11,576 nt of DNA from a virus (IMGVR_UViG_3300021060_000024:1-11576), one strand, 5' to 3'; shown: positions 1 through 11,576, counted from the first letter of the stretch. Notes: generated by a model from the letters alone, not told the origin. Program-made: numbers and translations.

Positions 1-1
1 G

Positions 2-229
2 GAGATGCAGGCCCAGCAGGCTGCGCGCCAGGACGTGCTCGCGATGATGGCCGACCGCTTCCGCGCCGAGCAGGGCGGCGTCGCCGCCGGGGCTGACCAG
101 CCCGCCTCGGGCTCGGGCACGCGCCAGGACCGCGGCTCCTCCAACGGCGGCTCCAGCCCGCTGAACAGGCCGCGCCGTGACCAGGACGGCGATGGCGTGG
201 TCGACGAGCGCTCCAACCGCGTCCGGTGA
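2..229 (+). CDS. C-terminal end of probable portal protein (5'-truncated)
   Basis: The frame is open from the window edge to TGA at 227-229, which overlaps the GTG of the next gene (GTGA). The sequence is a short helix (QAQQAARQDVLAMMADRF) plus a low-complexity tail. Identity rests mainly on its position directly upstream of the minor capsid gene. Confidence 0.55.
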   Translation, partial: EMQAQQAARQDVLAMMADRFRAEQGGVAAGADQPASGSGTRQDRGSSNGGSSPLNRPRRDQDGDGVVDERSNRVR

Positions 230-1485
230 GCACGCCCACCCTCGACCAGGTCGCTCCGCCCAACCCCTCGGGGCTGCCCGCGAGCGCCCCGCCCACGGTG
301 GAGCAGGCCGTCACCGCCTACCAGCTCGTGCTGGCGGCGGCGGTGGCTGGCGCCATCGCTGGCGTGATCCCCGGCCTGCCGGGGATGCCGATGGTCAACC
401 CGTTCACCTGGTGGTACTCCGGCGGCTCGAACTCGCCGGCCAACCGTGCCTTCATCGCACTGGCCACCGCCCAGGAGGTGGCCGCCGCGGCCGCGCGCGA
501 GTACGTCGTGGACGTCATGGCCGCCCAGGGGCACCTGGTCGCGCTGCCGGACCTGCGCCCCCTGGCTCTGGCCGGGGCCGCCAGCGACGGGCGCGACATC
601 GACAAGCTGCTGGAGCAGCCGATCTGGTCGGCCTGGGGCGCGCGCCAGGCGGGCGCCTCACCGGACGAGGCGCGCGCCGCGGCGGCCCTGACGATGGACC
701 GCATCCTGCACACGCAGATCATGGACGCCGCGCGCGAGGCCGTGGCCACGCACCTGGCCGCCGGACGCTCGATCAACCTGGACCCCGAGGACATCGACGC
801 CTACGAGGACGACTTCGAGCGCGGCGTGCAGCAGATCATCGACCGGATCAACCGCCAGCTCGACGACGAGGATGCCGCACTGCTCGTGCAGCGCGACGCG
901 CTGCGGGTGCTGCAGGACGAGGCCGCGCGCGAGCTGATCCGCGAGGCTGAGCGCATCACGCGCCGCGCCGCGCGCGAGGAGGCACGCGAGGCCGACCGCA
1001 CCCCGCGGGTCCAGCTCGGCTGGATCAGGGTCCTGACCCCGCCGTCGTGCGCGCGCTGCGTGGCCCTGGCCGGGCGCTGGTACCGCTGGAGCGATGACTT
1101 CCAGCGCCACGTCAACTGCGACTGCCTGCAGGTGCCCGCGGCCTCGGCCAAGGAGGCCCAGCCGATGGTGACCGAGCCCGACGTGTACTTCGCCAGCCTC
1201 ACCGAGGCCGAGCAGAACAAGACCTTCGGGGTCGCGGGCGCCGAGGCCATCCGCAGCGGGGCCGACATCGCCCGGGTGGTCAACGCCTACCGCAAGGGCT
1301 CGCTGTCGACGGTGGACGGCTACACGTACACCTCCGAGGGCACCACCAAGCGCGGCTTCTACCCCAAGACCGAAGGCGGCCAGGCTGGAGCGCGTCGCGC
1401 GACGCCGACCACGATCATCCGCGCCGCGGGGGGCGACCAGACCGAGGTCGTCCGCCTGCTCAAGCGCTTCGGCTACATCCGCTGA
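226..1485 (+). CDS. Minor capsid / head morphogenesis protein (MuF/SPP1 gp7-like, actinophage type), 419 aa
   Basis: Contains GWIRVLTPPSCARCVALAGRWYRWSDDFQRHVNCDC (CxxC...HxxCxC) and a C-terminal GTTKRG...IIRAAGGDQTEVVRLLKRFGYI. Both resemble motifs I recall from actinobacterial phage minor capsid proteins. It lies between the portal and scaffold genes. Confidence 0.8.
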   Translation: MSTPTLDQVAPPNPSGLPASAPPTVEQAVTAYQLVLAAAVAGAIAGVIPGLPGMPMVNPFTWWYSGGSNSPANRAFIALATAQEVAAAAAREYVVDVMAAQGHLVALPDLRPLALAGAASDGRDIDKLLEQPIWSAWGARQAGASPDEARAAAALTMDRILHTQIMDAAREAVATHLAAGRSINLDPEDIDAYEDDFERGVQQIIDRINRQLDDEDAALLVQRDALRVLQDEAARELIREAERITRRAAREEAREADRTPRVQLGWIRVLTPPSCARCVALAGRWYRWSDDFQRHVNCDCLQVPAASAKEAQPMVTEPDVYFASLTEAEQNKTFGVAGAEAIRSGADIARVVNAYRKGSLSTVDGYTYTSEGTTKRGFYPKTEGGQAGARRATPTTIIRAAGGDQTEVVRLLKRFGYIR

Positions 1486-1544
1486 CCAGAAGTTGTCGAT
1501 CCTGCCCCACAGACCACCCCCACACCGTGTGTGCTGCTCTCGAT

Positions 1545-1592
1545 CACCAGGCGCGAGGCCCGGTGGATGCAGGGAGCGGCGCGAGGTCGCTC
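1545..1592 (+). promoter_or_regulatory. Two tandem hairpins, each capped by an identical GCGAG loop, in the scaffold gene leader
   Basis: CACCAGGC-GCGAG-GCCCGGTG (1545-1565, one A.C mismatch) and GAGCGGC-GCGAG-GTCGCTC (1574-1592, one G.U pair). The 9-mer GGCGCGAGG occurs at 1550 and 1578. The SD-rich AGGAGAGGTG follows immediately. Confidence 0.55.
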
Positions 1593-1608
1593 AGGAGAGG
1601 TGGCACTG

Positions 1609-2340
1609 ATGGAGCGCACTGACAGCGTCGAGACGATCATCGACCGGTGGTTCGCGCAGCCCTTCGGGCTCGTGGGCGCTGAGCCGGACGACGACACGGG
1701 CGGCGGTGACGGTGGCGGCGACACCGGTGCCGGTGGCAACGCCGACCAGGGCGGCCAGGGTGGTCAGGATGGCGACGGGGGAGACAACCCCGGCGACGGC
1801 CTGACCGACGCGGGTCGCCAGGCGATCGACAGGGAGCGGCAGGCCGCACAGCGTGTGCGGGACAAGCTCAAGCCCTGGAACGCCCTCGCTCGCGAGACCG
1901 GGCTCACGCTCGATCAGATCCGCGAGCGGCTGATCGGCGGCGGGACCGGCGGGGGCAACTCCGGCGGCTCGGGTGATGGTGAGCAGGTGACCAAGGCCGA
2001 CATCGAGGCCGCACGCCGCGAGGGTGCGATCGAGGCGAACGCCAGGGCCAACCAGCGCATCATCAGGGCAGAGGTCAAGGCCCTCGCGGCTGACACCTTC
2101 GCTGATCCGAGGGACGCGGCGATCTTCCTCAACCTCGACGAGTTCGAGGTGGACGAGGACGGCGAGGTCGACTCCGACGCCATCAAGAAGGCCCTCAAGG
2201 ACGTGCTCAAGGACCGGCCGTACCTGGCCAAGCGCAAGGGCACGACCCAGACCTCGGGCGGTAGTCCCGACGGGGGAGCTCGCGAGACGCCCCCCAAGCC
2301 CAAGGGCATGTCGGACCTGATCCGCAACGCCCGCCGCTGA
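1609..2340 (+). CDS. Capsid scaffolding (head assembly) protein, 243 aa
   Basis: ATG at 1609 has GAGGTG 6 nt upstream, which is preferred over the ORF-track start at 1531. Gly/Asp-rich N-terminus, LTDAGRQAIDRERQ coiled coil, FADPRDA...DEDGEVDSDAIKKALKDVLKDRPYLAK C-terminal domain, basic tail. Located immediately upstream of the major capsid gene. Confidence 0.85.
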   Translation: MERTDSVETIIDRWFAQPFGLVGAEPDDDTGGGDGGGDTGAGGNADQGGQGGQDGDGGDNPGDGLTDAGRQAIDRERQAAQRVRDKLKPWNALARETGLTLDQIRERLIGGGTGGGNSGGSGDGEQVTKADIEAARREGAIEANARANQRIIRAEVKALAADTFADPRDAAIFLNLDEFEVDEDGEVDSDAIKKALKDVLKDRPYLAKRKGTTQTSGGSPDGGARETPPKPKGMSDLIRNARR

Positions 2341-2369
2341 CCCACACTCGAACCCGAGAGGAACACACC

Positions 2370-3371
2370 GTGTCCGACTTCACCAGGGGCCTCGCCTTCG
2401 CCGGTGGCGCCTACGACAACGTCACGTCGCGCTCCGACGTCGCCGCCCTCATCCCCGAGGAGGTCTCCAAGGAGATGCTCGGGAAGGCGACGCAGGGCTC
2501 GGCCGTGCTCCAGCTCTTCCGCTCCATCCCCGTGGCCCGCGCGGCCATCCGGTTCCCGATCCTCACCGCGCTGCCCATGGCCTACTGGGTCCAGGGCGAC
2601 ACGGGCCTCAAGCAGACCACCGAGATCGGCTGGTCGAACAAGTACATGACGGTCGAGGAGATCGCCACGATCCTCCCCGTGCCGGACAACGTCATGGCCG
2701 ATGTGGACGCGGACATCTGGGACGAGGCCCAGCCGCTGATCGTCGAGGCCTTCGGCCGCGTGCTGGACCAGGCCGTCTTCTTCGGCGCCAACGCCCCCGC
2801 CTCCTTCCCGACCAACATCCTCGCGGCCGTGGCCGCGGCGGGCAACGTCGTGACCGAGGGCACCGCGACCGCCGACAAGGGCGGCTTCTTCGGTGACGTG
2901 GACGAGCTCTACTCCAAGATCGAGGACGACGGCTTCGAGGTCACCGGCTGGATCGGTGCCACCTCGGCCAAGTCCAAGCTCCGCACGGTCCGCGACACCA
3001 CCGGGCGCAAGCTCGACGAGGGTCGCGTCTCGGGCGCGCTGGACAGCCTCGACGGCAACCCGCTGGTCTACCCGATGCGCGGCCTGTGGCCGACCGCGGG
3101 CTCGGCCGGGGCTGGCTCCAAGGGCGTGCGCCTCATCGGCGGCGACTGGAGCGAGTTCGTCGTGGGTGTCCGCCAGGACATCCAGCTCAAGGTGCTGACG
3201 GAGGCCGTCATCACCGACAACACCGGCGCCATCATCTACAACCTGGCTCAGCAGGACATGACGGCGGTGCGCCTGACCTTCCGTGTCGGATGGCAGGTCA
3301 CCAACCGGATCAACAACGACCAGCCGGACGCGACCAAGCGCTACCCGGTCGGCGTCATCCAGTACGCCTGA
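2370..3371 (+). CDS. Major capsid protein (HK97 fold), 333 aa
   Basis: AALIPEEVSKEM...SAVLQLFR...PILTALPMAYWVQGDTGLKQTT...EEIATILPVP...IVEAFGRVLDQAVFFG and GDWSEFVVGVRQDI...YNLAQQDMTAVRLTFRVGW match the recalled phage major capsid family pattern. SD GAGGA upstream; codon usage is strongly biased. Confidence 0.95.
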   Translation: MSDFTRGLAFAGGAYDNVTSRSDVAALIPEEVSKEMLGKATQGSAVLQLFRSIPVARAAIRFPILTALPMAYWVQGDTGLKQTTEIGWSNKYMTVEEIATILPVPDNVMADVDADIWDEAQPLIVEAFGRVLDQAVFFGANAPASFPTNILAAVAAAGNVVTEGTATADKGGFFGDVDELYSKIEDDGFEVTGWIGATSAKSKLRTVRDTTGRKLDEGRVSGALDSLDGNPLVYPMRGLWPTAGSAGAGSKGVRLIGGDWSEFVVGVRQDIQLKVLTEAVITDNTGAIIYNLAQQDMTAVRLTFRVGWQVTNRINNDQPDATKRYPVGVIQYA

Positions 3372-3397
3372 TCCCCACGACGGACGAGGAGACCACC

Positions 3398-3760
3398 ATG
3401 GCCGAGCGCCAGAGCCGCACCGCGGCTGAGAGCACCGAGACCAAGACCGAGTCCGCGCCTGACAACGCCTCGGGGGCCTACGCGGCCGCCGGGCGCCTGC
3501 AGGCGGGGGAGGCTGGCGAGATCGTCACCACGCGCGTGCCGCGCGGCGTCGGCGAGCCGGCCGCGGACGCCAAGGCCGAGGGCTTCGAGGGCGTCGCCGC
3601 CCTGCAGGAGCACGCGGTCAAGGTGGCCAACGAGGAGGCCGAGCAGGGCTTCCGCGGCGTGCAGGTCGACAGCACCCCCAACGAGAACTACACCCTCCGT
3701 GGCGTGGGTCGCGGGCTGCCGACCCCGGAGACCCAGGTCTTCACCCCCCGCGGTCGCTGA
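3398..3760 (+). CDS. Hypothetical post-capsid protein, 120 aa (possible capsid-associated/decoration protein)
   Basis: Strong SD GAGGAG before ATG 3398; the ORF-track start at 3086 is an off-frame overlap with the capsid gene. Disordered N-terminus followed by EEAEQGFRGVQVDSTPNENYTLRGVGRGLPTPET, a motif I recall (unverified) downstream of actinobacterial prophage capsid genes. Confidence 0.75.
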   Translation: MAERQSRTAAESTETKTESAPDNASGAYAAAGRLQAGEAGEIVTTRVPRGVGEPAADAKAEGFEGVAALQEHAVKVANEEAEQGFRGVQVDSTPNENYTLRGVGRGLPTPETQVFTPRGR

Positions 3761-3767
3761 CCGCATC

Positions 3768-3805
3768 GCGTAGGCCGGGTCACCCGACGGTGGCCCGGCC
3801 TACGC
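3768..3805 (+). terminator. Strong hairpin, probable intrinsic terminator/attenuator after the capsid genes
   Basis: GCGTAGGCCGGGTCACC-cgac-GGTGGCCCGGCCTACGC is a 17-bp stem with one G.U pair and a 4-nt loop, starting 8 nt after the stop codon. There is no U-tract, which is common for actinobacterial terminators. Confidence 0.75.
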
Positions 3806-3842
3806 TCGCTCCACCAGCCTTCGACTACCTGGAGTGATCCCC

Positions 3843-4109
3843 ATGGCACTGCGCGTGTGCGACTACTGCGGCAAGATCGACGACAAGGGACGGCACGTCC
3901 ACAGCGTCGCCCCTGGCGAGATCGAGGACGCGTCCAAGAAGGTCTACAACGCGGTGCTGAACTCCGACGCCTCCAACGACGACAAGCTCGCCGCCATGGA
4001 GAGCCTCAAGAACGACACGCTGCAGATCCGGCACATCGAGTGCTGCGCGGTCGCAGGGTGCCCCACGGGGACCTGCCAGGTCCCCGATGCTGTCCCTGAC
4101 ACCCCCTGA
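3843..4109 (+). CDS. Small Cys/His-rich putative metal (Zn)-binding protein, 88 aa
   Basis: SD GGAG 8 nt before ATG 3843. Motifs CDYC...RHVH...RHIECCAVAGCPTGTC contain 6 Cys and 3 His. Confidence 0.75.
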   Translation: MALRVCDYCGKIDDKGRHVHSVAPGEIEDASKKVYNAVLNSDASNDDKLAAMESLKNDTLQIRHIECCAVAGCPTGTCQVPDAVPDTP

Positions 4110-4136
4110 CGCCCTCGCGCAGACTGGAGACTCACC

Positions 4137-4538
4137 GTGGCTCTCGACCAGACGTTCGCCAAGGGCGTCAACGACTACATCCACAACGTGGCCGCTGCGC
4201 CGACGCTGTCGAACGCGCGCAAGCTCAAGCTCTGCTCGAACACGGGCACGAGCACCACGGCGGGCACCGAGGTGGCCACCGGCGGCGGCTACACCGCGGG
4301 CGGGGTCACGGTGACCTACTCGGCCGCCACGGCCGCCACGCCGTCGGTCTCGGCCAACGCGGCCGTCTCGATCACGAACACCCCGGCCTGGGGCTCGGTC
4401 GCCTCCATCGAGCTCACCGACGCCGCGGGCACCCCCGTGCGCCTGGAGTTCGGCGCCATCACCGGCGGCCCCAAGTCGACCAACTCCGGGGACACCCTGT
4501 CGTTCTCGGCAGGCTCGATCACCTCCGCCCTGCAGTGA
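4137..4538 (+). CDS. Small beta-rich phage fibre/minor structural protein, 133 aa (resembles the 'Gp80-like' tail-fibre-annotated family)
   Basis: SD GGAGA. The pattern LKLCSNTGTSTTAGTEVATGGGYTAGGVTVTY...SANAAVSIT...WGSVASIELTDAAG...FGAI...KSTNSGDTLSFSAGSIT matches the recalled pattern GTEV.G.GY.R...N...I.F......WGTI....I.DA..G....G.L...KTV.SGDT..F.AG.L. Confidence 0.7.
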   Translation: MALDQTFAKGVNDYIHNVAAAPTLSNARKLKLCSNTGTSTTAGTEVATGGGYTAGGVTVTYSAATAATPSVSANAAVSITNTPAWGSVASIELTDAAGTPVRLEFGAITGGPKSTNSGDTLSFSAGSITSALQ

Positions 4539-4542
4539 TCCG

Positions 4543-4638
4543 GCTGGGCGCTCATCCCGCCCAGCACCCTGCGCGCGGCAAGGCGCCCCGGTCCCCTCAG
4601 CCGGGGCGCCTGCCCAGTCGGCGCAGGCCGCCGCCTGC
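4543..4638 (+). promoter_or_regulatory. Cluster of intergenic stem-loops (possible attenuator or RNA stability element)
   Basis: GCTGGGCG/CGCCCAGC (4543-4550/4558-4565); AGGCGCCCCGG/CCGGGGCGCCT (4581-4591/4601-4611); CCTGCGC/GCGCAGG (4568-4574/4621-4627); GCAGGC/GCCTGC (4623-4628/4633-4638). Confidence 0.5.
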
Positions 4639-4665
4639 TCGACCGACCAAGAAGTGAGGTGACCC

Positions 4666-5784
4666 GTGGCCGACAGCAACGTCGCCATCACGGCCGGTAG
4701 CGGCACCCCAATCGACACCCAGATCCCCGCCGACGGCAGCGACCATCGCCAGGTCGTCGTGCTGGGCTCGCCCAGCACGAACGCGCGCGTGGCCGAAGTC
4801 GACGCGAACGGCCGCCTGCTCGTGGCCGCCACTGGCGGCTCGGCGGGTGCCATCGGCCCGACGCAGATCGAGAGCACCAGCGCCAACAGCGCGCTCGCGC
4901 TCGCCGTGAGCACCGCTGGCAACGTGACCTTCTGGCTCGCCGGGACGGCCACCACCACCACGGCTGCCGTCACCGCCGGCAGCGTGACCTTCGAGCAGTC
5001 GGTCGACAACACCAACTGGTCGCCCCTGCTGTGCGTGCGCTCGGACACCGGCGCCGCGGTCTCGACCTGGTCGGGCACCCTGTCCGCGGGCGTGGGGCTG
5101 GCCTTCGAGGCCGCTCTGGAGGGCGTGGCCTTCGTGCGCGTGCGCCCCACCGCCAACGCCAGCTCCGGCACCCTGTTCGCCACCATCATCGCTGGCGGCA
5201 TGGCGTTCAGCCCGTCAATGACCCTCACCGGCATCCCCGCGGTCACCCTGGCCGCGGGCAGCTCGGCCGTCGGCACCGTGGCTGCCCCCTCGATCACCAA
5301 GGCCACCCAGGCGTCCACCGGCTTCACCGTGCAGCCGCTGCGCGACGCGGGCCGCGTGGCCGTCACCCTCAACGCCAACCAGGTGGCCCCCTCGGCGGCG
5401 ACCACCGACGCGCTGACGAGCATGACCCCGGTGCGCGACGGCGTGAACGGCACCGCGGCCACGGCCTTCGCCGTCACCTCGGGCAAGCGCTTCCGCATCC
5501 AGAGCATCACGCTGTCGATGCGTCTGACCGCGGCCACGGCCGCCTGGTCGCGCTTCGCCATCCGCTCCACCCCCAGCGGCACCACGGTGGCCACGACCTC
5601 GCCGATCGTGTGGCAGATGGAGCTCTCCAGCCAGAACGTGGCCGCCACCGGCTACGTCGACCGCTTCCATGCCGACTTCCCCGACGGCCTGGAGCTGCCC
5701 TCGGCGGCCAACTTCGCCCTGGTCAGCCAGGCCAGCGGCACCGGCGTGGCCCTGACGGTCAGCATCGTCGGCTTCGAGTACTGA
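4666..5784 (+). CDS. Putative virion spike/fibre-base protein, 372 aa, beta-rich and multi-domain
   Basis: SD GAGGTG. N-terminal MADSNVAITAGSGT.IDT...HRQVV segment, a middle jelly-roll-like domain (SVTFEQSVDNTNW...FVRVR), and a C-terminal beta domain (VTSGKRFRIQSITLS...VSIVGFEY). Ala/Thr/Ser/Gly-rich, as in phage appendage proteins. Function is inferred only. Confidence 0.6.
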   Translation: MADSNVAITAGSGTPIDTQIPADGSDHRQVVVLGSPSTNARVAEVDANGRLLVAATGGSAGAIGPTQIESTSANSALALAVSTAGNVTFWLAGTATTTTAAVTAGSVTFEQSVDNTNWSPLLCVRSDTGAAVSTWSGTLSAGVGLAFEAALEGVAFVRVRPTANASSGTLFATIIAGGMAFSPSMTLTGIPAVTLAAGSSAVGTVAAPSITKATQASTGFTVQPLRDAGRVAVTLNANQVAPSAATTDALTSMTPVRDGVNGTAATAFAVTSGKRFRIQSITLSMRLTAATAAWSRFAIRSTPSGTTVATTSPIVWQMELSSQNVAATGYVDRFHADFPDGLELPSAANFALVSQASGTGVALTVSIVGFEY

Positions 5785-5801
5785 CCCCGGAGGGCTGAGC
5801 C

Positions 5802-8800
5802 ATGACCCTCCTGCTGCTGGCCCGCTCGGCCGCACCCACCGGTGCGCGCACCAACTGGGCGCCCAACCCCTCCTTCGAGCAGTCGATCACCACTGCCTGG
5901 GAGCAGTACGGCGTCGCCGCGGGCACCCACATCCGGGTCACCGACACCAGCCAGGTCGGCGGCGCGAGCCTGCGCCTGGCCTCGGCCGACGTCGTCGACA
6001 TGGGTCAGTGGACCCGCCTGAGCCTGCCCGCGGGGACGTGGACGGCCTCGATGTGGATGCGCACCGAGGCGGTCTCGGCCAACGCCGTCTTCTGCGTGCG
6101 CGAGCCGATCAACTACGGCAGCCTCGGCACCGAGAACCACGTCACGGGCACCACGGGCTGGACGCGCTACGCCACCACGTTCACCCTGTCCCAGGCTGGC
6201 GAGGTCGACTTCCTCGTCGGCCTGGGCTCCTACGGCCCGGCCAGCTCGGGCACGGTCTGGTTCGACGCGCTGCTGGTCGAGGCCGCCAGCAGTGCCGGGC
6301 CCTACATCGACGGCTCGATCGCCAACGCCGGGCGCACCACGCGCTGGACGGGCGCGCCCCACAACTCGCGCACCACCGCCGTGGACTCGGCGCGCTCGCT
6401 GGCCCTGCTGGGCACCGACTTCTCCCAGGCGCTGGACACCTCACGCTGGGGCACCTACGGCTCCCCCGCGGTCACCGGTGGCGAGCTGCGCCTGCCGCTG
6501 GACCCGACCTACCACGGCATCCAGTCCGGCGGGAACTACAGCATCGAGGGGGACTGGCTCAGCTTCCGGGTCACCAACCCCCCGCCGGGCAACATCGCCG
6601 GGGCCAACCCCGGCCTGTACGCCCGCGCGCGCAGCGCCTCGAACGCGAACACCAGCGTGGAGGTGGCCGTCGTCGGTGACGGCGCCAACGGCGTCCGGCT
6701 CAACGTCGTCGCCCACGTCAGCGGGCAGTCCGACACCTACCCCGTCAGCATCACCTGGGACTCCACCGCTCACCGCTGGCTGCGCCTGCGCGGCGAGGGG
6801 GGCTCGATCCGCGTCGAGGCCGCCCCGGACGGGCTGGCCTGGGCGCCGATCGCCACGGTCGCCGCGCCCTGGGACCTGTACGCCACCAGCGTCGAGATCG
6901 GCGCCGGTGACTACACCGGGGACCGCGCCACCTACGCGGCCATCGACGACCTCAACCTCGCGCCGTCGACCGTGGCCACGGTCACCGCGGCCGCGGCGCT
7001 GAGCGCCACCTCGACCCTGAGCGCCAGCGCCACGCCCATCGTGCAGCCGCTGGCGGCGCTGAGCGCCACCTCCACCCTGGCGGCCGACGCGCGCGCCGCG
7101 GTCCCCGCGGCCGCGGCACTGACGAGCACCAGCACGCTGAGCACGACGGCCCCGGCCGCCACGGTGACGCCGGGCGTGGCCCTGGGCGCCACGAGCACGC
7201 TGAGCGCGGCCTCGACCAAGGCGGTCCCCGCCGCCGCGGCGCTGAGCGCCTCCTCGACCCTGGTGGCCGACGAGCGCTCCATCGTGCTGCCCAGCGCCGC
7301 GCTGGGCGCCACCAGCACCCTGGAGGCCAGCGCGGCCGCCACGGTGGCCGCGAGCGCCGACCTGGTCACCACCTCCACCCTGAGCGCCGCCCCCCTGGCC
7401 GTGCGCCAGATGGCCGCGAGCCTGGTGGCCACCTCGACTCTGGTGGCCGACGAGCGCTCCACCGTGCTGCCCTCGGCGGCGCTGTCGAGCACCTCGGCGC
7501 TGAGCGCGGCGTCGAGCAAGGCGGTCTCGGCCGCCGCGGACCTGGTCACCAGCTCGACCCTGGCGGCCGCGCCGAGCACGACGCAGCAGGCCGCGGCGGC
7601 CCTGAGCGCCACCTCGACCATGGGCGTGGCCGCCAGCGCGGCCACCGCTGGCGCTGCGGCGCTGAGCACCTCCAGCACCCTGGCCGCGGGGTCGCCGGGC
7701 GTGACGGTGCTGGCCAGCGCGGCGCTGAGCACCTCCAGCATCTTGGCGGCCGACGAGCGCTCCACCGTCCCGGCGGCCGCGGCCCTGAGCGCCACGAGCA
7801 CGCTGAGCGCGGCCTCGACCAAGGCGGTCCCCGCCGCGGCGGCCCTGAGCGCGAGCTCGGCCCTGGCGGCCGACGGCGTGCGCACCACCAGCGCCGCGGC
7901 GGCCCTGAGCGCGAGCTCGACCCTGAGTGCGTCCGCGGTCGGCGTCGTGCCGGTCGCCGCCGTGCTGGTGGCCACCTCCACCCTGGCGGCCGCGCCGATG
8001 CGCACCACCGGCGCCGCAGCGGCCCTGAGCGCCACCTCGACCCTGGGCGCCAGCGTGGCGCGCACGCAGTCGCTCAGCGCTACCCTGGTGGCGTCGTCGA
8101 GCCTGGCGGCAACTACTCAGGCGTCGGTCTCGGCCGCCGCGGACCTGTCGGGCTCCTCGACGCTGAGCACCGCCGCGGCTGCCACGGCCGCAGGGTCGGC
8201 GACGCTGGTCGCCACCTCGACGCTGACGAGCGACGCGCCGGCCGTGGACGTCGCCACCGCGGCGGCGCTCAGCTCCTCCTCGACCCTGAGCGCGGCTGCA
8301 GCCGCGGCGGTCCCCGCCGCCGCGGCGCTGAGCGCGTCCTCGGCCCTGAGCGCGAGCACCGCGCGCGCCGTCGTGGCGAGCGCCCCGCTGGCGGCATCCT
8401 CTACGCTGACCGTGGCTGGCGCCGCCGCCGTCCCGATCGCGGTCGCCCTGAACGCCACGGTCGTCACGGCTGCGAGCCCCGCAGTCCTGGTGCTCCCGGC
8501 GGCCGCGCTGGCCAGCAGCTCGACGCTGAGCACCACGCCCACCGTGGTCCGCCCGACCGCGGTGGCCCTGAGCGCCTCCAGCACCCTGGTCGCGGCGCCG
8601 GTGCGCACCACCAGCGCCGCGGCGGCCTTGAGCGCCTCCAGCACCCTGACGGCCGACGAGCGCTCCACCGTCCTGCCGTCCGCCGCCCTGACCTCGGCCA
8701 GCACGCTGACGGCCGCATCGAGCAAGGCCGTGGCGGCCGCCGCCGCGCTCAGCGCCACCAGCACGCTGTCGGCAGACGAGACCACCACGGTGGCGGCCAG

Positions 8801-10535
8801 CGCGGCGCTGACGAGCACCTCGACGACGAACGTCACCCCCGCGGGCGCCGCGAGCGCCGCGGTGGCCATGTCGGCGTCGAGCACGACGTCGGCTACCCTC
8901 GACATCGCCGTCGTCGCCAGCGCGGCGCTGGGGGCCTCCAGCGTGCTGGCGGCGGCGCCCGAAGTTGCCGTCTCGGGCGCGGCGACGCTGGCCAGCGCCT
9001 CTATGCTGAGCGTCGCCGCGGTGCGCACGCAGCCCACGGCTGCAGCGCTGGCGGCAACGTCCACCCTCGCGGCTGCGCCCACCAAGACCGTCCCCGGCGC
9101 CGCGGCGCTGAGCGCCACCTCGACCCTGAGCGCGGCCAGCACCAAGACCGTGAGCCCGGCCGCGGCGCTGAGCGCGTCCTCGACCCTGAGCGCGGCCTCG
9201 ACCAAGATGGTGCCCGCGGCAGCAGCCCTCGGTGCAGCCTCGACGCTGAGCGCCAGCCCGGCCGCGGCCGCGAGCGCCGCGGTCGCGCTGTCGTCCGCCT
9301 CGACGCTCTCCGCGACCCCTGCCGTCACCGCGCAGGCCAGTGCGACGCTGAGCGCCACGAGCACGCTGGCGGTGGGCGCCGAGCGCATCACGGCAGTCGA
9401 GGCGGCCCTGGGCGCGGCCAGCGTGATGGAGGTGGCGGCCAGCGCGAGCGTGTCCGCCGCGGCGGCGCTGGAGAGCACCTCCTTCCTGATCGCCACGACG
9501 ATCGCGACTCAGAGCGCCAGCGCGGACCTGGTGACCACCTCCACGCTGGCGGTGGCGGCCCAGCGCGTCGTGGTCACGGCCGCGGCGCTGGTGGCCTCCA
9601 GCGCCATGAACAGCGCGGCCACCAAGGCCGTCCCGACCGCGGCGGCGCTGCAGACCCGTTCCACGCTCACCACCAGCTCGCGCAAGACCGTCATCACCCG
9701 CGCGGCCCTGAGCACGGCCTCGACGCTGAGCACGACGTCGAGCAAGACGGTCCCCGCGGCCGCCGCGCTGGTGGCCTCCAGTGCTCTGGCCAGCGCCGCG
9801 CGCGCGAGCGTCGAGGCGGCCGCCGCGCTGCAGGCCATGTCCGCGCTGGGGCCGGCCGCGGCCATCGAGGCGCCGGGCGCGGTGGAGATGATCAACTCCT
9901 CCACCACCGCGGTGAGTGCGAGCGCTACCGTCCCTGTCGCCGCGGCCCTGGCCGCCGTCTCGACGCTCGGGGTCGCGGTCCAGGCCCAGGTGGCCGCCGG
10001 GACCACGCTGGCGGCCACCTCGGCTCTGGCGGTCTCGGTCGTCCGGGTCCGCCCCGCGGCCGCGGCGCTGAGCGTGAGCTCGGTCATGGGCGTGGCCGCG
10101 GTGCAGGCGGGTCAGGTCACCGTCGCCATGGTCTCGGCCTCGGTGCTCAGCGCCAGCGCCACTCGGGTCCGCCCCGCGGCCGCGGCGCTGAGCGCGGCCA
10201 GCACTCTGGGCACCGCGGTGGTGCGCGCCCGCCCGGCCGCGGCAAGCCTGAGCGCGGCCAGCACCCTGAGCGCGGCGGCGCGCGCGGCGGTCCAGGGCGC
10301 GGCGGCCCTGGCGAGCACCGCCACGATGGTGGTCGACGCCGGGCTGATCGAGGCGCGCCCGGCCACCGACCTGCAGTTCACCGCCGACCTGCGCGAGGCC
10401 TGGAACGCTGGCCCGGCCCACCTGGCCTGGATCGTGGGGTCGCCGGTCCTGGCGGACTACAACCTCCGGACCCTCCTGGCCTGGGATGCTGGTCTGCAGA
10501 CCGACCGGGAGATCGACTCCCCCTACGTGGACTAG
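5802..10535 (+). CDS. Giant repeat-containing fibre/adhesin-like virion protein, 1577 aa: CBM-like domain + ConA/lectin-like domain + 56 x 20-aa repeats + short Trp-containing C-terminus
   Basis: SD GGAGG 8 nt upstream. NWAPNPSFE...WTRYATTFT...VWFDALLVE...PYIDGS...WTGAPHNS (5853-6374) resembles carbohydrate-binding-module-like domains of phage tail proteins. DFSQALDTSRW...HRWLRLRGEGGSIRVEAAPDGLAW...IDDLN (about 6411-6959) resembles a ConA-like beta-sandwich. The repeat region is 6987-10355. Confidence 0.85.
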   Translation: MTLLLLARSAAPTGARTNWAPNPSFEQSITTAWEQYGVAAGTHIRVTDTSQVGGASLRLASADVVDMGQWTRLSLPAGTWTASMWMRTEAVSANAVFCVREPINYGSLGTENHVTGTTGWTRYATTFTLSQAGEVDFLVGLGSYGPASSGTVWFDALLVEAASSAGPYIDGSIANAGRTTRWTGAPHNSRTTAVDSARSLALLGTDFSQALDTSRWGTYGSPAVTGGELRLPLDPTYHGIQSGGNYSIEGDWLSFRVTNPPPGNIAGANPGLYARARSASNANTSVEVAVVGDGANGVRLNVVAHVSGQSDTYPVSITWDSTAHRWLRLRGEGGSIRVEAAPDGLAWAPIATVAAPWDLYATSVEIGAGDYTGDRATYAAIDDLNLAPSTVATVTAAAALSATSTLSASATPIVQPLAALSATSTLAADARAAVPAAAALTSTSTLSTTAPAATVTPGVALGATSTLSAASTKAVPAAAALSASSTLVADERSIVLPSAALGATSTLEASAAATVAASADLVTTSTLSAAPLAVRQMAASLVATSTLVADERSTVLPSAALSSTSALSAASSKAVSAAADLVTSSTLAAAPSTTQQAAAALSATSTMGVAASAATAGAAALSTSSTLAAGSPGVTVLASAALSTSSILAADERSTVPAAAALSATSTLSAASTKAVPAAAALSASSALAADGVRTTSAAAALSASSTLSASAVGVVPVAAVLVATSTLAAAPMRTTGAAAALSATSTLGASVARTQSLSATLVASSSLAATTQASVSAAADLSGSSTLSTAAAATAAGSATLVATSTLTSDAPAVDVATAAALSSSSTLSAAAAAAVPAAAALSASSALSASTARAVVASAPLAASSTLTVAGAAAVPIAVALNATVVTAASPAVLVLPAAALASSSTLSTTPTVVRPTAVALSASSTLVAAPVRTTSAAAALSASSTLTADERSTVLPSAALTSASTLTAASSKAVAAAAALSATSTLSADETTTVAASAALTSTSTTNVTPAGAASAAVAMSASSTTSATLDIAVVASAALGASSVLAAAPEVAVSGAATLASASMLSVAAVRTQPTAAALAATSTLAAAPTKTVPGAAALSATSTLSAASTKTVSPAAALSASSTLSAASTKMVPAAAALGAASTLSASPAAAASAAVALSSASTLSATPAVTAQASATLSATSTLAVGAERITAVEAALGAASVMEVAASASVSAAAALESTSFLIATTIATQSASADLVTTSTLAVAAQRVVVTAAALVASSAMNSAATKAVPTAAALQTRSTLTTSSRKTVITRAALSTASTLSTTSSKTVPAAAALVASSALASAARASVEAAAALQAMSALGPAAAIEAPGAVEMINSSTTAVSASATVPVAAALAAVSTLGVAVQAQVAAGTTLAATSALAVSVVRVRPAAAALSVSSVMGVAAVQAGQVTVAMVSASVLSASATRVRPAAAALSAASTLGTAVVRARPAAASLSAASTLSAAARAAVQGAAALASTATMVVDAGLIEARPATDLQFTADLREAWNAGPAHLAWIVGSPVLADYNLRTLLAWDAGLQTDREIDSPYVD
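6987..10355 (+). repeat. 56 tandem degenerate ~60-bp (20-codon) repeats; consensus xAAALSA[ST]STLSAxxxxxVP
   Basis: Manual parsing gives 53 units of 20 aa and 3 of 21 aa, totalling 1123 aa, which fits exactly between 6987 and 10355. Position 5 is always L or M. Position 9 is Ser in 54 of 56 units. Position 11 is mostly L/M. Confidence 0.92.
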
Positions 10536-10544
10536 GAGGCGGCC

Positions 10545-10853
10545 ATGGCGAGCGCCAAGCTCCCGTTCGGCAGCATCGAGTACCTGCACGTCCCCATCAC
10601 CCGCGACGACGACTCCGTGGCCGTGGACCTCACCGGGGTCCAGATCGAGGTGGCCATCCTGGCCGACGGCGTGGAGCCGAGTGCTCCCGGCGTGACCTGG
10701 CACCTGACGCAGACCCTGGTGAGCGAGGGGGAGGTGCTGGCGCGCTACCTGCTCGACGGCACCACGGCCCGCGGGCGCTGGAACGTGTGGGTGCGCGTGG
10801 GTGCGGGCCCGGAGCTGGCGCTGCGCAAGGCGGGGCTGCTGACGGTCACCTGA
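10545..10853 (+). CDS. Small Ig-like/BppU-N-like beta-sandwich structural protein, 102 aa
   Basis: SD AGGAGG overlaps the upstream TAG, suggesting translational coupling. IEYLHVPIT...VDLTGVQIEVAI...P....W...ARYLL......GRWNVWVRV...PE...R.AGLLTVT is an all-beta pattern I recall from small proteins adjacent to actinophage fibre genes. Confidence 0.65.
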   Translation: MASAKLPFGSIEYLHVPITRDDDSVAVDLTGVQIEVAILADGVEPSAPGVTWHLTQTLVSEGEVLARYLLDGTTARGRWNVWVRVGAGPELALRKAGLLTVT

Positions 10854-10881
10854 GTCCCACCAGGTGATCGCCCTACCCGGC

Positions 10882-10897
10882 TACCCTGCGTGACGTG
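10882..10897 (+). promoter_or_regulatory. Candidate sigma70-type -10 element (TACCCT) giving a leaderless transcript that starts at GTG 10895
   Basis: TANNNT hexamer at 10882-10887, a 7-nt spacer, then GTG. No SD is visible upstream of this gene, unlike most others in the window. No consensus -35. Confidence 0.45.
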
Positions 10898-11350
10898 GCC
10901 TACCCCGTGGACTCCGACGACATCGCAGTGCGCTGGCGCGCGCTCGATGCGGACGAGGCCGCCCTGGCCGAGGTGCTGCTGGAGGACGCCGCCGTGCTGC
11001 TGGACAACCAGCGCCCGGTCCTGGCGGCCGCCTACGCGCTCAAGCCGGGCCTGTTCCTGCCCCTGATCCGCATGGTGCTGGTGCGCGCGGTCAAGCGCGT
11101 GCTGGCCAACCCTGACGCTGTGCGTGGCCAGACCATTGGCGCGGACGGCACGGTCTCCATCAGCTACGGCCTGTCCACGACCAGCACCCAGGTGATCGAC
11201 GGCGTCTACATCGACGACGCCGACCTGGTGGACCTGGACCGTGCGCTGGCCGCGGAGGCTGGAGGCACCGGCCGTCGCCGGGTGCGCTCCGTCCGGCTCC
11301 TCGCCTACGACGAGCCGGTGAACCGCATGTCCATCCTGCCCCTGCCGTGA
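10895..11350 (+). CDS. Head-to-tail adaptor (Gp19/Gp15/Gp42-like connector protein), 151 aa
   Basis: MAYPVDSDDIAVRWRALDADEAALAEVLLEDAAVLL...MVLVRAVKRVLANPDAVRGQTIG...SISY...IDDADLVDL matches the recalled actinophage adaptor pattern (D+..RWR.L...E...A..LL.DA...V...V.RVL.NP.G...ETIG.YSY). Confidence 0.85.
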   Translation: MAYPVDSDDIAVRWRALDADEAALAEVLLEDAAVLLDNQRPVLAAAYALKPGLFLPLIRMVLVRAVKRVLANPDAVRGQTIGADGTVSISYGLSTTSTQVIDGVYIDDADLVDLDRALAAEAGGTGRRRVRSVRLLAYDEPVNRMSILPLP

Positions 11351-11364
11351 CCGAGGAGTCCGAC

Positions 11365-11576
11365 GTGTCCGAGATCCTGCAGCCCGTCAGCGACCTGTCG
11401 GTGCGGCGGCTCGCCGCGCCCGCCGCTCGCCCCGCCATCACCACGGTGGCCGCCGCCGTGGAGGCCATGAGCCCGCGGCGCTACCGCGCGTTCGGCAACC
11501 GCAAGGTGGCCGACTTCAAGCGCTCCAACTTCGAGGCCATCGCTCGCTCGGTGGCCGACATGGCCAAGTTCGAGTC
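11365..11576 (+). CDS. Hypothetical protein (3'-truncated): MSEILQPVSDLSVRRLAAPAARPAITTVAAAVEAMSPRRYRAFGNRKVADFKRSNFEAIARSVADMAKFE...
   Basis: SD GAGGAG (11353-11358) lies 6 nt before GTG 11365. An alternative in-frame GTG at 11347 overlaps the upstream TGA. The frame is open to the window end with GC-biased third positions. Not in the ORF track because it has no stop in the window. Confidence 0.7.
   Translation, partial: MSEILQPVSDLSVRRLAAPAARPAITTVAAAVEAMSPRRYRAFGNRKVADFKRSNFEAIARSVADMAKFE

Follow-up and report, generated by a model that had tools for sequence, protein, structure and literature searches.

A five-gene cassette of an uncultured actinobacterial phage as a candidate neck-anchored fibre of the rope-and-bead type

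In the chain-like fibres described in a small group of bacteriophages, dimers of gp80-type proteins are strung on a “rope” polypeptide (PMC13730344, PMC12609058). Fiber I of the Ralstonia podophage GP4 consists of the gp77 collar, a rope and gp80 (PDB 8JOU; Zheng et al. 2023, J Mol Biol 435:168258) and, in the account that two later papers give of it, carries five dimers on its rope, which is the product of a separate gene and interlocks with an Ig-like collar seated on the adaptor (PMC13730344, PMC12609058). The collar-whiskers of the E. coli myophages Bas63 and Sf14 also have gp80-like dimers on a rope, a strand of which completes the incomplete sandwich of each monomer; their 12-fold Ig-like collar sits on the adaptor periphery, and possible binding of a glycan (lipopolysaccharide) has been suggested (PMC12609058). 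In the Pseudomonas podophage A1002, 11 gp40/gp41 dimers dock by β-augmentation on the nozzle-rope gp39 in N-to-C order, with dimer 1 distal, and the Vibrio podophage VP1 has chain-like fibres as well (PMC13730344). A bead-chain fibre of about 100 nm, with many copies of a small protein and with terminal proteins, extends from the neck of the Anabaena myophage A-1(L) and is made from gp80-gp82 (PMC10966104). Here we describe a five-gene cassette that appears to belong with the GP4 and Bas63 systems. It occupies positions 3843-10853 of an 11,576-nucleotide stretch of viral DNA (the window), which comprises bases 1-11576 of the 75,576-bp IMG/VR record IMGVR_UViG_3300021060_000024, and its five open reading frames (ORFs), all on the plus strand, lie between the genes for the capsid and a 120-aa protein on one side and that for the Ad1 head-tail adaptor on the other.

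The 133-aa product of the second gene (4137-4538, plus strand), hereafter the bead, is by sequence comparison a true homologue of GP4 gp80 and a member of the gp80/PF23140 bead family. Searched alone, it matches PF23140 (“Podophage GP4 fiber I protein gp80”) at 24.6 bits against the Pfam cut-off of 27 bits (E 3.4e-5), and the same family is carried by 35 of its 59 homologues among the matches listed. A sequence search of the PDB with this single protein as the query returned spurious matches only. A profile built from 33 sequences of the bead family aligned end to end (1-132 with 1-139) and with an E value of 3.6e-9 to 8jou_a, the 140-aa GP4 virion protein that is present as ten chains in the PDB entry. 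Complex prediction with two copies of the bead and three rope repeats scored 0.63 against 0.55 for the control, which counts neither way for binding. Upstream of the bead gene lies that for an 88-aa Cys/His protein (3843-4109, plus strand; 91 aa if translation starts at the GTG at 3834), in which C6, C9, H64 and C68 (CxxC...HxxxC) are invariant across five homologues. Each of these, all from actinobacterial loci, is encoded directly 5' of a gp80-like bead gene, and the Cys/His protein is a putative Zn-binding partner of the bead. It matches no family in Pfam, PHROGs or NCBIfam, and the ESM Atlas gave a poor model (predicted template-modelling score, pTM, 0.27) with no usable lead.

The fourth gene (5802-10535, plus strand) encodes the 1577-aa protein that we call the rope. 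The protein comprises two predicted sugar-binding domains, 56 repeats and a 59-aa tail, and as a whole it finds nothing in Pfam (E <= 0.1), PHROGs or NCBIfam. The repeats are tandem units of 20 residues that fill aa 396-1518 (6987-10355), with the consensus AAAALSATSTLSAAxxxxVP, in which L5 is conserved at 94%, S9 at 96% and L11 at 83%. Their spacing is exactly 20 residues in 52 of 55 cases and 21 in the other three. Each repeat has a conserved, alternating, strand-like core of nine residues (AALSATSTL) and then a variable linker, and the units are proposed as docking strands for bead monomers. A 40-aa super-repeat, which would correspond to one dimer per two repeats, is not claimed, odd and even repeats having the same consensus. 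A PDB sequence search with 400 aa of the repeats gave spurious matches only. The C-terminal 59 residues (10356-10535) are non-repetitive and matched no family; we propose that they may serve as the anchor to the collar or neck.

The N-terminal 395 residues of the rope, for which HMMER lists 744 relatives, divide into two mobile domains (aa ~10-200 and ~200-395). The first, D1 (aa 1-195; 5802-6386), opens with the motif MTLLLLA and continues as a CBM_4_9-related domain, and the second, D2 (aa 196-395; 6387-6986), is concanavalin-A/LamG-like. CBM_4_9 (PF02018) is carried by 7 of 30 HMMER homologues of this region (best E 1.5e-17) and Laminin_G_3 by one of the 30, while the ESM Atlas lead for the CBM_4_9-like domain scored 0.87. 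The same genome encodes a 789-aa protein with a GH6 catalytic domain (PF01341, E 5e-38; G000 17029-19398, L004:6029-8398), the gene for which lies between tail-completion and putative major tail genes. In this protein, the domain N-terminal to GH6 shares 46% identity with D1 (E 6e-48), and the C-terminal domain shares 29% with D2 (E 6e-12). Because the domains at the rope tip are paralogous to those that flank GH6, fibre tip and glycanase are very probably directed at one and the same polymer. The label “lectin-plus-repeat”, given to the 1577-aa protein in an earlier note on this DNA, finds support in both these paralogues and the CBM_4_9 relatives.

The third gene encodes a 372-aa protein (4666-5784, plus strand) that was modelled with AlphaFold2 from an alignment with 14 homologues. 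The mean predicted local distance difference test score (pLDDT) was 70, with two folded domains mostly at 80-92; the N-terminal ~60 residues (MADxxVxITxGSGT) are conserved in sequence and of low model confidence. In the model, aa 59-178 superimpose on XepA-C/YomS (6i56 / 6i5o) with Z scores of 13.4 (root-mean-square deviation 2.1 Å over 106 residues, 20% identity) and 12.9, and this sandwich also has a weak profile match to XepA/YomS (E 0.015), so that it is predicted to be a XepA C-terminal/YomS domain. The block at aa 225-372, where pLDDT is mostly 84-92, resembles 4-1BBL (Z 11.0), A4 gp24 (9k09_A; Z 10.7), the short-fibre CBD of A-1(L) (Z 9.8), C1q and BclA (Z 8-9), and PRD1 P5 is also similar. 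At the level of the predicted fold it is a TNF/C1q-like jelly-roll head like the typically trimeric ones of phage receptor-binding fibres, such as the receptor-binding heads of A4 gp24 and the A-1(L) short fibre (PMC12002296). An invariant G[FY]EY closes the sequences of the family; the protein itself found nothing in Pfam, PHROGs or NCBIfam, and tblastn against 50,697 phage records gave no match. What had been called a spike-like protein is better described as two β-sandwich domains with a TNF/C1q-like head.

The fifth gene (10545-10853, plus strand) ends 41 nt 5' of the adaptor gene and encodes a 102-aa protein with a predicted Ig-like β-sandwich, the proposed collar subunit. The Ig-like label was already attached to this protein; it stands with the ESM Atlas model as its sole support (pTM 0.69; TIG, LtfC and YtkA-like neighbours). 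In other loci the connection between Ig-like domains and adaptors is a physical one, as fusions of the two follow genes of the 372-aa family and ORFs with an MxLLLL start in L008, L011 and L020. The fusion in L011 joins an N-terminal PF23148 domain (the GP4 gp77 fibre-tail adaptor/collar domain, E 3e-13) to Phage_connect_1. BLASTP of the 102-aa protein against the L008 and L011 fusions, a 105-aa protein encoded downstream of the adaptor and a 128-aa protein of L043 showed no similarity.

Comparison of gene neighbourhoods was possible in eight loci with readable DNA (the window, L008, L040, L041, L042, L043, L044 and L045), and in all eight a gp80-like gene adjoins a gene for a protein with repeats of ~20 residues. 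These ropes are 561-2260 aa long (643-2260 aa in L041-L045), and all those whose associated bead shows 45% identity or more retain the core L-x3-S-T-L in their repeats. All ropes seen have a binding or enzymatic domain at the N terminus, and the tips differ: CBM and ConA-like domains in the window, a GDSL esterase in L044 (E 1e-19) and DUF4082/discoidin in L042. At L044:9838-14987 a 1409-aa rope with the esterase N terminus and 51 repeats is followed by a separate 267-aa gene with 12 more. The 2260-aa rope at L043:8471-15253 has a 20-residue periodicity over most of its length, with ~106 units called and no clear consensus. The trio of Cys protein, bead and rope occurs at three genome positions, namely the capsid-adaptor slot (window), after the endolysin gene (L041) and the Dit-Tal position (L042). 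A gene of the 372-aa family is followed immediately 3' by an ORF starting with M[ST]LLLL in 11 loci, counting the window, and such ORFs are often repetitive, with repeats of 18-22 residues (34 of them in L020). The rope of the window bears both signatures, the MTLLLLA N terminus and the AALSATSTL repeats, and the cassette is therefore, judging from these motifs, a fusion of two sub-modules. One consists of the Cys protein, the bead and the repeat protein, and the other of the 372-aa protein, the MxLLLL rope and the Ig-like domain or adaptor. The combination of bead, 372-aa protein and rope is also found in L007 (unrelated capsid, same slot) and in L008 and L040 (SU10-type adaptor).

The Cys, bead and 372-aa genes were found in none of 80 IMG/VR loci whose capsid proteins are 47-75% identical to that of the window, and they are thus accessory and mobile. 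Most of these capsid relatives are compact, with the capsid gene, a ~130-aa gene, a ~190-aa gene (annotated as the adaptor in Arthrobacter phage Eileen) and a tape-measure-sized gene. L074 has the most closely related backbone (identities of 43% for the adaptor, 59% for the next gene and 50% for the putative major tail protein), and its slot (L074:7549-11258) holds a different cargo of 3.7 kb, in which an 828-aa protein with a weak endosialidase β-barrel match is encoded between two paralogues of ~130 aa. The capsid-adaptor slot is a hot spot for appendage cassettes. The earlier note had suggested a self-contained, possibly exchangeable module and had asked whether the five genes travel together and are lacking in related phages. 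The cassette is indeed accessory, its Cys, bead and 372-aa genes being missing from the 80 capsid relatives and other cargo filling the slot in L074, but the five genes are not one unit, and it is as two sub-modules that they travel.

Our best reading, which we hold with moderate confidence, is that the cassette encodes an accessory collar-rope-bead fibre of the GP4/Bas63 type anchored at the neck. That it provides a neck-attached, glycan-binding second adhesion system is favoured by the bead homology, the predicted carbohydrate-binding modules, the Ig-like gene beside the adaptor gene and the Ig-like-adaptor fusions; the first of these also sustains the simpler claim, made before, that the cassette encodes fibre parts. 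Taking homology, repeat structure and gene linkage together, we infer an assembly, each step of which is conditional. The 102-aa Ig-like protein would build the collar, a ring around the edge of the Ad1 adaptor, and the C-terminal 59 residues of the 1577-aa protein, acting as a single-chain rope, would dock on this ring. Each of the 56 repeats would offer a short β-strand (AALSATSTL) to complete the incomplete sandwich of one bead monomer, so that about 28 bead dimers could be arranged end to end along the rope. At its distal N terminus, the CBM_4_9-like and ConA-like domains would bind the host surface glycan that is cut by the tail-borne GH6 enzyme, and the 372-aa protein may join the conserved N-terminal MxLLLL strand of the rope, adding a further binding head at the distal end. 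For the small Cys/His protein, a role as Zn-binding partner of the bead, in assembly or in structure, is possible. The function of such a fibre would be the long-range, reversible capture of the host cell-wall glycan ahead of tail engagement.

The architecture as such is already known, from GP4 (2023), Bas63/Sf14 (2025) and VP1/A1002 (2026). With GP4 the locus shares a homologous bead, a separate rope gene, a predicted Ig-like protein encoded beside the adaptor gene and, as proposed, the character of an accessory second fibre system. In contrast to the five dimers per rope of GP4, however, there are 56 docking-type repeats here, the phage is long-tailed with a presumed high-GC Gram-positive host, and the N terminus of the rope has two predicted carbohydrate-binding domains. 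Two extra partners are present as well, the 372-aa protein with its TNF-like head and the Cys/His protein, and the 102-aa protein has no match to PF23148. The proposed likeness to Bas63 lies in beads on a rope, an Ig-like collar at the adaptor and glycan binding, which in the present case are predictions from the genes. In Bas63 a short extension at the N terminus of the collar protein serves as the rope and holds two dimers, whereas here the rope and Ig-like genes are separate and the rope is 1577 aa long with a lectin tip. A1002 and VP1 would be similar in having many bead dimers on one rope chain and a flexible fibre of long reach, but in A1002 the tail nozzle includes the rope, and two bead proteins are used, in contrast to one bead gene, an inferred neck anchor and about five times more docking sites here. 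In A-1(L), by contrast, an unrelated protein forms trimeric beads that stack on one another with no rope, and there is no homology to the proteins described here.

Several points weigh against the neck-anchored rope-and-bead fibre. The window's own bead falls just under the Pfam cut-off of its family, and we infer both rope-bead binding and the location in the virion from the genes alone. Fifty-six beads on each of several ropes would require many hundreds of bead copies per virion. For the 102-aa protein, a word-based homologue search found the protein itself only and Pfam (including PF23148), PHROGs and NCBIfam returned nothing; its candidate role as the collar is drawn from predicted fold class and gene position. 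A further point comes from modelling, in which AlphaFold2 folded 12 isolated repeats into a regular, β-rich, solenoid-like structure with two or three short strands per repeat (pTM 0.62; pLDDT uniform, mean 65, no residue at or above 90). This would suit an explanation that we regard as unlikely, namely that the 56-repeat array folds by itself into a long β-solenoid or β-helical shaft with coils of ~20 residues whose L5, L11 and V19 face inward, giving a rigid lectin-tipped fibre for which the gp80-like protein would be a separate collar, cap or decoration. The weak Foldseek neighbours of the model are β-helix proteins (LpxD and putative adhesins), and the three hydrophobic positions of each repeat, at intervals of 6, 8 and 6 residues, might form the lining of a triangular core. 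However, the confidence of the model is modest and Foldseek gave no significant structural match (best E 3.4). Conservation, moreover, is concentrated in one 9-residue strand with a variable linker of 5-6 residues, rather than distributed along a whole coil with fixed turns. It also counts against a self-folding shaft that such repeat proteins adjoin gp80-like genes in every readable locus, and that gp80-like dimers sit on an extended rope in the Bas63 and A1002 structures and, by the account of those papers, in GP4.

The attachment site raises a second alternative, in which the same rope and beads would form a fibre on the tail (tip, tube or terminator) and the capsid-adaptor position would be a mere insertion hot spot. 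In a prophage of the cultured Intrasporangium mesophilum (GCA_054783095.1; L042:9754-13713), the genes for a Cys protein, a gp80-like bead and a 1096-aa protein directly follow those for a putative tape measure (1066 aa) and a Dit-like protein (255 aa). The 1096-aa protein combines DUF4082/discoidin domains and ~9 AALSATSTL repeats with a tail-tip-like C terminus. With the trio at this tail-tip position and, in L041, at a post-lysis one 3' of the endolysin gene, gene position does not fix the attachment site, which is again a point against anchoring at the neck. The A1002 rope, moreover, belongs to the nozzle, and the capsid-adaptor slot of L074 holds unrelated cargo. On the other side, the rope of the window has the MxLLLL N terminus, which in other loci is invariably found together with the 372-aa family, and in L008, L011 and L020 Ig-like-adaptor fusions come next. 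The Ig-like gene of the window itself stands between the rope and adaptor genes, and in L045 the bead and rope genes again lie between those for the capsid and the tail tube. We therefore consider a tail location quite improbable.

Decoration of the capsid shell, or a head fibre of the phi29 gp8.5, Hoc or phiCbK type seated on capsomers, can be set aside as very improbable: the cassette genes do follow the major capsid region, Ig-like domains are common in Hoc-like decorations and the up-facing fibres of GP4 and Bas63 touch the capsid, but no similarity to any decoration or cement family was found in Pfam or PHROGs, the solved homologues of the bead are all neck- or tail-anchored, and related loci have the Ig-like domain joined to adaptors in fusion proteins. 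The head fibres of phi29 and the head filament of phiCbK are non-tail appendages, on capsomers or the head apex, that aid adsorption. These two had been offered as analogues of the cassette; we found no sequence or architectural relationship to either, and the chain-like fibres of GP4, Bas63 and A1002 are its closest precedents, the GP4/Bas63 type being much the nearer. Of the second adhesion system that had been placed on the capsid or the neck, the neck version is thus the best reading in view of the Ig-like and adaptor links, and attachment to the capsid shell is without support.

The gene arrangement agrees with the tight linkage that the earlier note had reported. The cassette ORFs have a third-position GC of 0.91-0.98, like the flanking phage genes, are separated by gaps of 27, 127, 17 and 9 nt, and each has a Shine-Dalgarno-like GGAG or GAGG 5-10 nt 5' of its start. 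Upstream, 3' of the 120-aa gene, a GC-rich hairpin with a 17-bp stem, a 4-nt loop and no T tail (3768-3805, plus strand; arms 3768-3784 and 3789-3805, 94% complementary) had been noted before and is now backed by folding far beyond chance. The 82-nt spacer that contains it (3761-3842) folds at -48.6 kcal/mol (z -6.95), with none of 200 shuffles equally good, and the hairpin is likely a terminator or attenuator that parts the capsid genes from the cassette. A second structured spacer of 127 nt (4539-4665, plus strand) lies 3' of the bead gene and forms three hairpins (z -3.1, again 0 of 200 shuffles equally good); it could lower downstream expression relative to that of the bead. With structured spacers at both places, 3' of the capsid genes and 3' of the bead gene, the arrangement would be in keeping with production of far more bead than rope. 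The candidate leaderless promoter that had been placed downstream found no support, a sigma-70 scan of the whole window giving no sites. The adaptor gene has no Shine-Dalgarno sequence and has TACCCT 7 nt 5' of its GTG, and a small hairpin near its start is not significant (z -1.6). Antisense ORFs run over the repeat gene, one of 1420 aa (window 6441-10703, minus strand) and several of 190-460 aa; as by-products of GC-rich Ala/Ser/Thr repeats, they are not regarded as genes.

The source is an uncultured, high-GC actinobacterial phage, with a GC content of 68-79% and a third-position GC of 0.87-0.98 in plus-strand genes. It is putatively long-tailed and encodes a putative tape measure of 1911 aa. 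CheckV puts the completeness of the record at 100%. The portal gene (G000 74094-75575) runs past the contig end, and window positions 1-229 lie inside an ORF that fits its continuation; because the portal is split across the contig ends, the record, although labelled linear, looks like a circularly permuted complete genome. On the plus strand of the window there follow, by family matches, genes for a MuF/VG15-like protein (226-1485) and a scaffold (1531-2340), and then that for the HK97-type major capsid protein (2370-3371; PF05065, E 9e-24), which is 67% identical to the capsid protein of Eileen (Bridgettevirus), where two small genes only separate capsid and adaptor. The 120-aa gene (3398-3760, plus strand) forms, together with the major capsid gene, the upstream border of the variable slot. 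The last ~30 residues of its product are 71% identical to Eileen gp8, and this C terminus recurs 3' of the capsid gene in 44 of the 80 related loci; the 120-aa protein is a conserved small head or neck protein outside the cassette. The Ad1 head-tail adaptor, the proposed seat of the collar, is encoded at 10895-11350 on the plus strand (phrog_137, E 2e-13) and has the L074 adaptor, noted above, as its 43% identical counterpart. Megablast of the window against the 50,697 phage records gave no match.

Directly 3' of the adaptor gene lies a second trio of genes, which runs from window 11347-11576 to G000 13525 (L004:347-2525) and encodes proteins of 236 aa, 367 aa and 105 aa, the last of them Ig-like. 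It is kept in the backbone relative L074 (59%, 24% and 43% identity, in the same order), and the 236-aa protein has a C-terminal match to phrog_5417, a weak tail-fibre PHROG. The trio may encode a second neck appendage. The idea that the 236-aa protein is a second gp80-like bead was rejected, with an hhalign probability of 0.6%.

Chain-like fibres have been recognised only from 2023 on, in few phages of Gram-negative hosts and with 2-11 bead dimers per rope. What is new here is the scale of 56 sites, the host group and tail type, the GH6-paralogous lectin tip, the two extra conserved partners and the composition from two mobile sub-modules. A bolder and more tentative picture, which we regard as possible, is that of neck “fishing lines” on the order of 100-250 nm, each a single 1577-aa chain with ~56 beads and, at the tip, the CBM pair shared with the phage's GH6 glycanase and a TNF-like head. 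Repeat number would set the length of these lines, and virions would be pre-concentrated on the wall of a filamentous actinobacterium, at a β-glucan-type polymer that the tail enzyme would cut afterwards. If this were true, the fibre would be the longest rope-templated one described and the first in a Gram-positive siphophage. The analysis also provides names for five “hypothetical” genes and for large unnamed families, namely the 372-aa G[FY]EY proteins, the MxLLLL ropes and the CxxC...HxxxC bead partner. As paralogues, the rope tip and the GH6 CBMs link an accessory fibre in a concrete way to enzymatic receptor processing. Ropes carry exchangeable tips, and the module can be accommodated at a neck, tail-tip or post-lysis site. 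The locus and its relatives suggest that the rope-bead design is widespread in actinobacterial phages and prophages, and that the rope is scalable by repeat number to dozens of docking sites.

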